Part shown: positions 15,708 to 58,412 of the stretch, piece after piece
Position numbering within the stretch: the stretch's first letter is position 1
Layout: each line of letters starts with the position of its first letter
NCBI RefSeq assembly: GCF_004010195.1
Contig: NC_057731.1
Span: 29,369,374-29,433,373, forward strand
Direction of reading: 5' to 3'
Length of the DNA stretch: 64,000 nucleotides
DNA from: Chiloscyllium plagiosum
Taxonomy: Eukaryota
Notes under the pieces: generated by a model
The model's input: only the letters and a program-made list of their open reading frames with translations
Told to the model about the DNA's origin: nothing
Databases searched by the model: none
Translations under genes and position numbers: made by a program

Positions 15708-16170
15708 AGAAGCAGAATTTTAGCAGAAGGAAGAGCCCAATAAACCCAAAACGATAGGGCAAATGTGATTTTGGAGTTTTCATAAAGCAGTATTGCACAC
15801 GAAGAGAAGGATGCGATGTTGAATCTGCATAATCTGCCACAGTTAGAATGCTATCTGGGATTCTGAGCCCTATGTTATTGAAAGGTCTTTTGGAATCATT
15901 ACAAGAACCACTGCAGTGAGGGTCTTAATTATATTTTTAAAAATTAAAATGGCCTTCTAACTTTAATCTAGTAATAATTTTCCTAAAGATTTGGAGAAGT
16001 TAACTAACAAAAGACAGTTACCCTGATTGATGACTGCTCAGTAACAAGTGGGCATATGTTCCAAATTTTCACCAGGAGAATGAAAAGGAAATTAAAGGGT
16101 TACACGTAGTTAGTAGAATATGTGATGTTATATCTAGGCTAGTCTTGAACAGGAAGTCCAATAAATACAG

Positions 16171-16373
16171 AGTTAAAAATCACACATCACCAGGTTATAG
16201 TCCAACAGGTTAAATTGGAAGCACACTAGCTTTCAGGGCGACGCTCCTTCTTCAGGAGGAAGGAGCGTCGCTCCGAAAGCTAGTGTGCTTCCAATTAAAC
16301 CTGTTGGACTATAACCTGGTGTTGTGTGATTTTTAACTTTGTACACCCCAGTCCAACATCGGCATCTCCAAAT
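16171..16373. mobile_element. Fold-back Penelope-terminus mini-insertion
   Basis: About 80 bp inverted arms (16171-16250 and ~16258-16338). 12-bp TSD CAATAAATACAG at 16159-70 and 16374-85. Confidence 0.85.
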
Positions 16374-16635
16374 CAATAAATACAGGTACTTAATAAAGAA
16401 GGATATAAAATGGGTGGAAAGTAGAAGAAAATATCAATTAAAGTAGATGGTTCCACTTGACCAGTCAACCAGTATGATAGACCAAGTTGTTGTTCTTCTG
16501 CTATTGAATTTTACCAACTTTGAACATTTTTCTGTTGTTTAAATCAAGAGCCTGAATGATATTCCTGGCGGCACAGCATTGAAATTTGAGAGTCAGCCAA
16601 TCAAAAGGTTGCTTCTATGTTGAGTGTCCAATTCA

Positions 16636-16958
16636 GGGTGGCATGGTGGCTCAGTGGTTAGCACTCAGTGGTTAGCACTGCTGCCTCATAACACCAGGGT
16701 CCCAGTTCAATTCCAGCCTCGGGTGACTGTCTGCGTGGAGTTTGCACATGCTCCCTGTGCCTGCGTGCGTTTCCTTCGGTTTCCTCCCACAGTCACAAAG
16801 ATGTGCAGGTCAGGTGAATTGGCCATGCTAAATTGCCCATAGTGTTAGGTGCATTAGTCAGAGGGAAATGGGTCTGGGTGGGTTACTCTTCGGAGGGTTG
16901 GTGTGGACTGGTTGGGCCGAAGGGCCTGTTCCCACGCTGTAGGGAATCTAATCTAATC
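16636..16958 (+). mobile_element. HE1 SINE with a short duplication in the head
   Basis: ctcagtggttagca is repeated twice, followed by V domain and (TAATC)n tail. Confidence 0.88.
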
Positions 16959-55729: not shown

Positions 55730-57340
55730 AGAGAGATTGGCAGAAAACTATAGATCAATGAGCTTGATGTCTATTAAGGGAAAGATGTTAGAATCAATCA
55801 TTATGGAAGCTATATTACATTGGAAAGCTCATGATAATCAGGAAGATTCACCATTGTTCCGTCTAAAGGAAACCAAGCCTAACTAATTTACTATAGTTCC
55901 CTGAAGGAGTACCATGTACTGCGTATAAAGGGAGCCTGTATATGTTCTGCGCAGTACTTGGATTTCCAGAAAACATTTGTTAAGGCACAAAAAAAGCTAT
56001 TGCAAAAAGTAGGAACTCATGGTGTACGGAGTAACATTTTAGCATGTATAGAAGATTGGTTGTTGGCAGAAAACTAAGAGCCTACATAAATAGGTATTTT
56101 CCTCATTGGCAGGATGTGATGAATGGAGTCTTGCCACAGTTTAAGTGTATTTAAGGCACAGATGGATAGGTTCTTGATCAGTAAGGGGATCAATGGTTAC
56201 AGGGAGAAGGCAGGAGATGAGAAACATATCAGCTATAATTGTATGTTGGAGTAGAGTCAATGGGTCAAAAGGTCTAATTCTGCTCCTGTACCTGATGGTC
56301 TTGGTGTTCATATTAGCTCTACACCAATGATTTAATTATGGGAGTGAAGGCATGGCAGCCAGATTTGCAGATAACATGAACATAGGTAAGAAAGTATGTT
56401 GTGAAAAAGACACAAGGATATCGCAGATGAATTTAGCTGGATTGACAGAGTTGGAAAACTCTAGTAGGTACACTATAATGTGTAGAAAATGCAAAGTTGT
56501 TCACTTTAGAGGGATGAACGAAAAAGCAGACTATGGAGGAACCTCAATTATCCGGCATTTGATTATCCAAATATCGGATTATCTGGCAAGATTGCAAGGT
56601 CCTGATGCTTGGCTAAACTATGTTATCCAACATTCGATTATCTGGAATTCGATTAACCGAACAAAACACTCCCACCTCTGTCTTTCAGATAATCAAGGTT
56701 CCTCTGTATACTTCAGTGGACAATGTCAGCAGAATTGTCTGAGTTACAAAGGGATCTTGCTATTCTGAAAAGTTAGTCTGCATGTTATAGCAAGTACTTA
56801 TGAATGCTCATGGAATGCTATTCTTTATGACAAGAAGAATTGAACAGAAGAAGTAAGGATATTATACTTCAGTTGTACAGTTTATTGGTGAAACCACTTC
56901 TCAAATATTGTGTGCAGTTTCAGGTGGTTCAGAACAGGTTTGCTGAAGATATACTTGGAATGAGTGGATGATCTTAAGAAGGAACATCGGGCAAAATGGG
57001 CTTATTTTCACTAGAGCTCAGAGAGTAAGGGGTGACTTGCTTGAAGTCAGTAAAATGCTGAATAGTATTATTCAGTTGGACATGGAAAGGACTGAGGAGG
57101 TGCACCCAGAATAAGAATTCACCCTTTTATGCCAGAGCTGAGGTCGTGTTGTGTGACCCAATGGTCTGGAGGGGTCATTGAATATTTCTAAGTATTTTGA
57201 AAGTAGATAGATTTTATTCGGCAAGGGAACCAAAACGTATTGATGGTAGATGGGAATTTGGAATTCACAATGTAACAGATCAACGTTTACTTCTTGAATG
57301 GTATATCTGGCCTTGGTGACCAAATTCATATGTTCCAATA
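55730..57340 (+). mobile_element. Decayed CR1 LINE (RT region to 3' UTR) with nested insertions
   Basis: NYRSMSL, LTNLL, ARFADNMNIG and KCKVVHF remnants, followed by a CR1-like 3' UTR. Confidence 0.75.
56534..56706. mobile_element. Tc1/mariner (pogo/Tigger-like) MITE
   Basis: About 21-bp TIRs (tggaggaacctcaattatccg and cagataatcaaggttcctctg), TA duplication at 56532-33 and 56707-08, internal TTCGATTATCCG sub-repeats. Confidence 0.8.
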
Positions 57341-58107
57341 TTCATAATTGATTGTTTGGCATCCATGGCCAGATTCTCTGGATAAAGGTGAGAATGTTGA
57401 ATTGGTGGGAATGTGGAATCGGTTGGAATGAGGAATTGGTTGCTACTCCCATCTGAAGAATGTTGTCTCCATTTTGTGCCATCTTTCCTTTCCACATTGA
57501 CTTCAGTGCATACAACATTTACACTGGGTCCGCCAGCTGCCTTACACTTTGAGCACTTTGATTGGCCCTCCCACACTGTCGAATTGCCTGTCATTTCAAA
57601 GAATAAGGAGGAGCCTCATATAAGCCAACACTATTCCAACAGACCTAGACTGGGTAAGTGCAGAAATGATGTTCCTGATTACCAAAGAGACCAGAAAAAG
57701 CCACCATAGTTTAAGGACGTGGGGTAGACCGTTTAGGACTGAGATGAGGAGAACATTCCTCATGCAGAGAGTACTGCAGAAGTCATTGCGCCAGAAAGAG
57801 GTAAAATATTGAGTGTTTTCAAGAATGAATTACATGTAATTCTTAGGGCTAATTGTTCAAAGGGTATGGTGAGAAAGCAGAAACAGGAGTTGGATCACTA
57901 TATGATCAATCATAATCATATTGAGTGGTAGAACCAGCTCAAAGGGCCAAATAGCCTACTCCTTCTATTACACTTTTCTAAATGTTTCTGGGTTTCTAAC
58001 CCTAATTTGACAGTACTTTAGCTGGTGTCTTCTGAACTAACTTTGTACAAAAAGATTATACCCAATGTGCCACTACATTTGTAACTTGGAATCAACTTCA
58101 TTTTGGA

Positions 58108-58258
58108 GAGAAAGTGAGGTTTGCAGATGCTGGAGATCAGAGCTGGAAATGTGTTGCTGGAAAAGCGCAGCAGGTCAGGCAGCATCCAGGGAACAGGAGA
58201 ATCGACGTTTCGGGCATAAGCCCTGAAGAAGGGCTTTTCCAGCAACACATTTCCAGCT
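58108..58258. mobile_element. Fold-back Penelope-terminus mini-insertion
   Basis: 17-bp TSD ATCAACTTCATTTTGGA at 58091-107 and 58259-275. 25-bp inverted arms. Strand switch at ccCTGAAGAAGGGC. Confidence 0.85.
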
Positions 58259-58412
58259 ATCAACTTCATTTTGGACTTGTGTGAGAAAATTCAGCTCCCT
58301 TTTGTCACATACTTACATATATATTAAATCAGTTATTTTTCAAGAGAAGTGGAAAGGAACTATCAGGAAACCCAATGTAAAATCTTATTCACCAGCAATT
58401 TTCTCCTTGTAG

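Follow-up and report, generated by a model that had tools for sequence, protein, structure and literature searches.

A 64,000-nucleotide (nt) stretch of the bamboo shark Chiloscyllium plagiosum genome (contig NC_057731.1, positions 29,369,374 to 29,433,373 of the forward strand), referred to here as the window, carries several copies of the terminus of a Penelope-like element. Three of these copies, named E1 (16171-16373), E2 (47555-47709), and E3 (58108-58258), are short fold-back inserts in which the terminus is joined to an inverted partial copy of itself. A preliminary description of the window had proposed that their orientation flips at a fixed point, the core of a hammerhead ribozyme. 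Re-inspection confirmed the positions of the three inserts, the letters at their junctions, and their target-site duplications (TSDs) of 12-17 base pairs (bp), as well as their assignment to two sequence families, E1 and E2 being members of family A and E3 of family B. Each insert has one arm that extends through a tail and one that lacks it. Positions within a terminus are counted from the first C of the hammerhead core, CUGANGA, as +1. The longer copies used for comparison and the parts of the three inserts are as follows.

62500-62993, forward strand: long family A reference copy, with the core at 62871, the predicted ribozyme cut after 62899, the tail-less end at 62957, and the tailed end at 62992/62993; a TATA-like box lies at 62831 (-40) and a poly(A) site at 62928-62931.
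60240-60515, forward strand: second long family A copy, with at least 158 nt preserved ahead of the core at 60398.
48650-49508, forward strand: long family B copy, in which the decayed GIY-YIG end of the Penelope open reading frame (ORF) is followed by the terminal repeat, with the core at 49423.
16159-16170, forward strand: left TSD of E1, 12 bp, repeated exactly at 16374-16385.
16171-16256, reverse strand: tail-less arm of E1, family A, from -1 to the tail-less end (+87), with a whole hammerhead core and a mutated stem II.
16256-16373, forward strand: tailed arm of E1, from +3 (the CU of the core is missing) through a 35-nt tail at 16339-16373; 94% identical to 62873-62997.
16374-16385, forward strand: right TSD of E1.
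47543-47554, forward strand: left TSD of E2, 12 bp, with one mismatch to 47710-47721.
47555-47669, reverse strand: tailed arm of E2, family A, from +7 through a 34-nt tail.
47669-47709, forward strand: tail-less arm of E2, from +2 to +14 and, after a skip of ~44 nt, from +59 to the tail-less end; 47681-47709 matches 62928-62955.
47710-47721, forward strand: right TSD of E2.
58091-58107, forward strand: left TSD of E3, 17 bp, repeated exactly at 58259-58275.
58108-58224, reverse strand: tailed arm of E3, family B, from +8 through a 33-nt tail.
58222-58258, forward strand: tail-less arm of E3, from -1 to +14 and, after a 55-nt skip with 4 common letters, the distal end; CCT is common to both arms.
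58259-58275, forward strand: right TSD of E3.

The arms of E1 form an 88-bp stem that is 93% complementary and closed by a 2-nt loop, and its junction region folds with a z score of -6.6. In E2 and E3, the tailed arm is long and the other is short, comprising 13-15 nt of hammerhead core and, after a skip, the distal end; the jump of this second arm had been seen before, and we find microhomology of 1 letter at the skip in E2 and 4 letters in E3. The two arms of E3 are identical over the distal 26 nt and have variants in common that are absent from the other family B copies. The 5' ends of the arms lie at -1 and +3 in E1, at +7 and +2 in E2, and at +8 and -1 in E3 (all six between -1 and +8), with 1, 1, and 3 letters, respectively, common to both arms at the turn. 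The three junctions are all different, and each of them divides or removes the core. Of the two cores in E1, one is whole, with a mutated stem, and the other lacks its first two bases, and no complete hammerhead was found on either arm of E2 or E3; judged from their sequence, these inserts are probably poor ribozymes, with cores broken by the junction. None of the ends is at the hammerhead cleavage site: the ribozyme is predicted to cut after +29 (62899), and the turns lie 21-30 nt upstream of that point. On grounds of position, ribozyme cleavage was rejected as the cause of the turn in E1-E3.

When the whole window was searched for inverted repeats lying close together, 12 matches were obtained, four of which are Penelope-like fold-backs with a flanking duplication. 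The three inserts listed in the preliminary description are therefore real but not the full set, as it had missed a fourth, E4, at 51412-51912.

51399-51925, no strand assigned: E4, a family C fold-back with its 13-bp duplication (51399/51913), a 228-bp stem, and a hammerhead core at 51801.
51412-51638, reverse strand: tail-less arm of E4, followed by an 8-nt spacer.
51647-51912, forward strand: tailed arm of E4, with a 38-nt tail.

E4 turns at -154/-162, that is, ~155 nt upstream of its own core. As it lies inside the span for which a fixed breakpoint had been claimed, it contradicts that part of the claim, while the grouping of the six arm ends of E1-E3 at CUGANGA stands. The E4 arms are 97% complementary, so that this copy, from a third family, appears young, and its 228-bp stem and 8-nt spacer are intact. 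All four fold-backs in the window combine one tailed arm (tails of 35, 34, 33, and 38 nt in E1 to E4) with one tail-less arm, and their TSDs measure 12, 12 (one mismatch), 17, and 13 bp. Under a uniform model, the chance that three of four turns fall within a 10-16 nt window over 130-220 nt is 0.0004-0.007 if the window is set beforehand, and about 0.025-0.18 if it is picked afterwards. Taken from the 64-kb window alone, the clustering at the core is suggestive.

The Penelope origin proposed for the inserts held up. In family B, the region upstream of the terminal repeat (48650-49160) shares 54% identity over 177 amino acids with bamboo-shark protein P0002, which matches the Pfam domains RVT_1 (E 0.008) and GIY-YIG (E 0.00025), both weakly and below the curated cut-offs. 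This similarity ties family B, at the level of sequence, to endonuclease-bearing Penelope elements. A Pfam search of protein P0001 and of the E4 reading frame gave no match. CUGANGA, stem II, and GAAA were located by motif scan in families A and D and by inspection in families B and C, and an Rfam scan gave no hammerhead match at E<=1. Five features of Penelope insertions were thus found: the link to reverse transcriptase (RT) and GIY-YIG (in family B), the hammerhead, a head-to-head truncated copy, a one-sided tail, and a TSD. An ORF-like stretch at 61985-62197, with a possible likeness to the C-terminus of a Penelope protein, precedes an assembly gap (62199-62344) and the long family A repeat.

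Some plain, non-inverted copies likewise begin near the 5' edge of the core. Of the 10 plain copies in the window, five begin 3-8 nt upstream of the core, and the remaining five start at ~+30 or ~+35 or reach 158 to more than 700 nt upstream. The five that start at the core's edge are as follows.

39458-39556, reverse strand: plain family B copy of 99 bp with a 13-bp duplication, starting 6-8 nt before the core.
13921-14028, reverse strand: plain family D copy, starting ~4 nt before a hammerhead-like core.
14731-14834, reverse strand: plain family D copy with the same start (~4 nt before the core).
38039-38147, reverse strand: plain family D copy with a decayed core, starting ~4 nt before it.
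41923-42026, reverse strand: plain family D copy with a decayed core, starting ~4 nt before it.

Family D, which comprises four copies of ~105 nt, appears older and has a 3' segment in common with family B. The upstream flanks of its four copies are unrelated to one another (scores of 12-18, against a random median of 14).

For a genome-wide view of family A, contigs of three DNA runs were aligned to its terminus (58,001-68,275 pieces per run). They show two sharp 3' ends 35 nt apart, at 62957 (518, 525, and 568 contigs) and at 62992-62993 (1799, 1762, and 1791 contigs). Among the 15 joints listed, out of 145, seven are strand changes, five of them head-to-head and two tail-to-tail. Four of the five head-to-head joints listed have one arm ending at 62866-62870 (-5 to -1) and are supported by 19, 14, and 14 contigs and 5 RNA reads; the fifth lies far upstream, in 1 contig. 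The tail-to-tail joints, which bring a tail-less and a tailed end together on opposite strands (62954-62993; 13, 14, and 15 contigs), have support equal to that of the listed head-to-head ones and possibly reflect insertion into the element's own terminus. Contig depth was rejected as a truncation profile, as diverged subfamilies and clipping at indels occur where the profile dips (62824-62859) and where it steps (62788 and 62860).

Metagenome contigs served as an outside test. A scan for the minimal hammerhead gave 112 motif matches at 110 loci, and 55 matches were retained as hammerhead-like (stem II of at least 4 bp, GC below 48%). We analysed 25 of these 55, in which an inverted partner spans the region; L055 (a duplicate of L013) and L004 and L019 (inverted match wholly upstream) were left out. 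Only one of the 25 pairs, L032, turns at the core, and the longer arm ends at -26 to -244 in the other 24. In one family, the turns lie at -49 to -80 in four of five analysed members, and in another, with 11 members, they are spread. An exact duplication candidate of at least 11 bp accompanies seven of the 25 pairs, tails and duplications are present in the cases inspected, and the second arm is short (28-56 bp) in six pairs. Animal-like metagenome DNA thus carries inserts of the fold-back-plus-tail type (L012, L032, L040, L069, and L077 among others), with family-specific turns. The exact family A pattern had no match in the metagenome and viral contigs, and a family B-like pattern had none in the viral contigs. 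Since plain copies share the start at the core's edge and most metagenome pairs turn elsewhere, the hot spot is best described as a family-specific 5' end and not as a property of the ribozyme itself, a view that these data support.

A promoter could account for such an end. In family A, the majority read has TATAAAT at -40 (62831 G>T, ~99% of contig depth), and the second long copy has TATGAAT at -38; the background frequency of TATAWAW is 0.0005 per base per strand. A start ~30 nt behind this box would fall at about -10 to -8, adjoining the observed arm ends. Family B has an initiator-like TCATTCC at -6, which is where its plain copy starts, and a putative TATA box and initiator have been described in the rotifer repeat (PMC3846280). 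Two points of the preliminary description are supported, namely a real pile-up of family A and B arm ends at the core's 5' edge and its second option, an RNA end defined near the core.

In family A, an AATAAA-like signal precedes the site at +58 to +61 where sense transcripts receive their poly(A) tails (loose A runs in 457 and 555 reads), and RNA depth drops from ~1550 to 450 over 62910-62931. Together with a start near -8, this site would define a 65-nt R-like region. Polyadenylated transcripts lack both RT start sites, so that the templates would be RNAs reading on from the repeat or read-through RNAs. No go-back joint was found among the 15 joints listed, in a poly(A)-anchored RNA run. The distal piece of the short arm of E2 (47681-47709, aligned with 62928) starts at +58/+59, the position of the poly(A) site, and a joint at 62934 occurs in 4, 4, and 1 contigs of the three DNA runs; this may be chance or the trace of a cDNA (complementary DNA) made from the downstream cleavage fragment, and no such signal is present in family B. 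Dispersed family A copies may also donate poly(A) sites to host genes.

With a probability of roughly 0.6, we interpret the inserts as severely 5'-truncated, head-to-head insertions of endonuclease-bearing Penelope-like elements, in which two cDNAs, primed from two target nicks, would have run off a family-specific RNA 5' end and been linked through 1-3 nt of microhomology. The ribozyme would then mark the position of the turn without being its cause, and every insertion would create its hairpin afresh. In families A, B, and D, transcription from the terminal-repeat promoter would begin a few nucleotides ahead of the hammerhead. The enzyme, as a predicted dimer, would make one cDNA per RT start site, one on each target strand, and both cDNAs would tend to stop at the hammerhead's 5' edge, the RNA start. 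Their 3' ends may then anneal at the core edge before being trimmed and filled, helped in E3 by the self-complementarity of the core itself (CCT-N5-AGG); the E3 junction is the outcome expected from CCT/AGG annealing across the core. The skips in E2 and E3 could be microhomology jumps during synthesis or later deletions, and read-through RNA templates would yield E4 and the long copies. The Poseidon protein of a lizard cleaves and extends both target strands, its RT starts at two internal sites flanking the tail, and hammerhead cleavage is dispensable in vitro (PMC11167929). Two independent cDNAs, one per nick and start site, predict that either arm may be the longer one, as is seen: the tail-less arm reaches further 5', and so owns the loop, in E1, E2, E3, L032, L040, and L069, and the tailed arm does so in L012 and L043.

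Several observations weigh against this reading. E1 and E2 share one letter each at the turn, which does not demonstrate annealing. The TATA-like motif of family B is weak and its initiator motif is common (1.3% per base), and in family C, where TATAAAT lies at -53, E4 has no end near -23. The single poly(A) single-cell RNA library shows no pile-up of read starts or ends, and many sense reads lie well upstream of the core (depth of ~540-850 at 62698-62859 vs 1400-1650 at the core). In Drosophila virilis, the promoter is described as TATA-less and internal, with a start 46 nt before a 75-nt intron (PMC2377424), and the intron stops at the 5' boundary of hammerhead helix I (PMC4209133). No TSD was detected at the four family D copies, and this family has no established link to an ORF. 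Animal origin is presumed for the metagenome loci, their Penelope identity is inferred from motif, tail, and duplication only, and they were chosen for an intact core, so that split-core junctions such as those of E2 and E3 could not be sampled. The 15 of 145 family A joints give no genome-wide fraction, and part of the depth step at the core is due to diverged upstream subfamilies (loose ends at 62859 and 62869).

The preliminary description had also proposed that the ribozyme structure fixes the template switch. In such a scheme, the hammerhead fold, through stem II and the CCT-N5-AGG pseudo-palindrome, stalls the RT and sets where the strand changes. The position of all six arm ends of E1-E3 agrees with it, as do the use of CCT/AGG at the E3 junction, the landing of the E3 skip on a 4-nt match to stem II, and the turn of L032 at the core. 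We nevertheless consider it unlikely, and the claim was not upheld: E4, which turns ~155 nt away, and all metagenome pairs other than L032 share this type of core, plain copies stop a little upstream with no switch at all, and the cut is predicted at +29. In addition, stem II is only 5 bp long, the regions fold no better than shuffled sequences (z of -0.78 to +0.21), and the RT would presumably stall 3' of the stem, not 5' of it.

Equally doubtful is self-priming, in which a single cDNA (or antisense RNA) folds back on itself and an endonuclease resolves the hairpin, leaving a one-sided tail. This route was proposed in print (Arkhipova 2013, PMC3846280), with an explanation for the tail (Craig 2021, PMC8557442). 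It would suit the near-perfect hairpin of E1, with its 2-nt loop and strongly folding junction region, and the 26 identical nt and private variants in the arms of E3. Loop ownership separates it from the model of two cDNAs, since self-priming of a tailed cDNA would never leave the tailed arm shorter. The loop belongs to the tail-less arm in E1-E3, L032, L040, and L069, and copying a tail-less cDNA into a hairpin could not yield a tail. Furthermore, the long arm of E2 and E3 holds sequence missing from the short arm, and the short second arms of six metagenome pairs also speak against self-priming.

A variant that gives the hammerhead an active part in the junction likewise seems improbable to us. 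Leader RNAs (90-125 nt) from the core's 5' edge, and sometimes also ribozyme-cut RNAs starting at +30, would template the two cDNAs on a dimeric enzyme, and CCT-N5-AGG would anneal them. In that case, the recurring joint 62868/62902 (9, 5, and 7 contigs in the three DNA runs, 3 RNA reads) would provide the first genomic trace of a hammerhead being cleaved in vivo during Penelope retrotransposition. The coordinate 62902 is the partner in three of the four core-edge joints and is the base after the predicted cut in copies without a 2-nt insertion, and it is also the clip point of that common indel. As the loose ends at 62902 (359, 330, and 339 contigs) are ordinary upstream sequence, alignment clipping is favoured.

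A splice acceptor or other processing site, in place of a transcription start, is very unlikely to set the RNA boundary at the core, although D. virilis keeps this alternative in play. The intron end of D. virilis mentioned above fits such a boundary, and in one subfamily of family A, a pyrimidine-rich tract that closes with CAG lies immediately upstream (loose-end consensus at 62869). Spliced RNA, however, would bring a common upstream exon, whereas the upstream flanks of the four family D copies are unrelated, and the TATA-like box of family A stands at the right distance for a start.

We regard it as highly improbable that the junctions were left by later central deletion of longer palindromic insertions. 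Long palindromes are unstable, and the skips of E2 and E3 show 1-4 nt of microhomology. E1 and E4, however, retain stems of 88 and 228 bp with spacers of 2 and 8 nt, and such deletions would neither centre repeatedly on the same 10 nt nor account for the plain copies. Deletions with such microhomology have been described for Penelope copies (PMC3846280), and for the E2 and E3 skips alone, later deletion is plausible.

The least probable explanation is that the hairpins are a retrozyme-like non-autonomous family that amplifies on its own: sequence can be mobilised in trans by terminal repeats (PMC3846280), the terminus is very abundant in the DNA runs, and a few joint coordinates recur across contigs, but the three window junctions differ, E2 and E3 lack a complete hammerhead, the window has no tandem array of them, and recurrent coordinates are expected from a common RNA end, 62902 being an alignment clip point.

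If the arm lengths are indeed independent and both arms stop at a promoter-defined start, then a mechanism with two nicks and two cDNAs would be favoured over self-priming, and simple predictions would follow for the existing in vitro Poseidon system. The scars also call for care in annotation, as fold-back hairpins mimic microRNA precursors and miniature inverted-repeat transposable elements. The E1 hairpin (16214-16295) scores weakly, below gathering thresholds, against microRNA precursor models and is a likely source of false microRNA calls; a microRNA identity was rejected, the four weak Rfam matches below gathering scores, three of them on this hairpin, being matches of shape. The window also contains an abundant repeat of ~300 bp in both orientations (1-260, 10537-10849, 15390-15690, 16666-16966, 19202-19391, 27058-27230, 45574-45725, and 59915-60223), which resembles a tRNA-derived shark short interspersed nuclear element.

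The preliminary description had placed the inserts in a class of retrozyme-like passengers, and the comparison with known retrozymes does not bear this out. By definition, retrozymes are tandem units, each of which holds an intact hammerhead (Li et al. 2026, 10.64898/2026.07.22.740005). The non-long-terminal-repeat retrozymes of animals resemble the shark inserts in being short and non-coding, in deriving from Penelope terminal repeats, and in having a type I hammerhead motif. They are, however, arranged head-to-tail in tandem with intact hammerheads, whereas the shark inserts are single head-to-head events with broken cores and differing junctions. None of the six tandem arrays in the window overlaps the inserts or contains a hammerhead.

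The shape of the insertions has already been described, and as an element class they are not new. The published Penelope insertion unit consists of an inverted 5'-truncated copy beside the element, with a tail of 30-40 bp on one end (PMC3846280, PMC8557442, PMC8969392). Head-to-head inverted termini, a one-sided tail, TSDs, palindromic junctions, and strong 5' truncation are common to these units and the shark inserts. Unlike in the published units, both shark arms are reduced to the terminus (150-500 bp, no ORF), the TSDs measure 12-17 bp vs 8-10 bp in the rotifer examples, and the 5' ends of arms and copies cluster at the hammerhead's 5' edge in three shark families, which differs from the unit descriptions in these sources. 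Such clustering was not found in the literature searched, and PMC12910113 offered nothing on the question; Fig. S2 of PMC11167929, a map of genomic insertion ends, may be relevant to its novelty. How Penelope elements make inverted ends and one-sided tails is called undefined in the sources covered, and the short scars offer a dense natural record of the process.

The minimal hammerheads of metazoan Penelope elements (Cervera and De la Pena 2014, PMC4209133) are mostly solo motifs in truncated copies, with some close opposite-strand pairs. They share with the shark motifs CUGANGA, one unpaired base, stem II, GAAA, and palindromic positions 15.2/16.2, and they differ from E1-E3, in which the junction divides or removes the core. 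Poseidon of Anolis carolinensis (PAc; Frangieh et al. 2024, PMC11167929) is similar in its two RT starts flanking the tail, in the extension of both strands, and in its AT-rich targets, and its terminal repeat likewise has a minimal hammerhead that is unneeded for insertion in vitro. The text on Poseidon covered here gives no account of fold-back products or cDNA stop sites, and the joining of two cDNAs is inferred from the genomic scars of the shark.

No relevant literature was found on twin priming of Penelope elements. In LINE-1 twin priming, two target nicks prime two cDNAs that are joined through microhomology to give an inversion, which resembles the mechanism proposed for the shark. The second LINE-1 primer, however, anneals internally and the two segments do not overlap, whereas the shark cDNAs, made from the two start sites of the element, would overlap and leave a hairpin.

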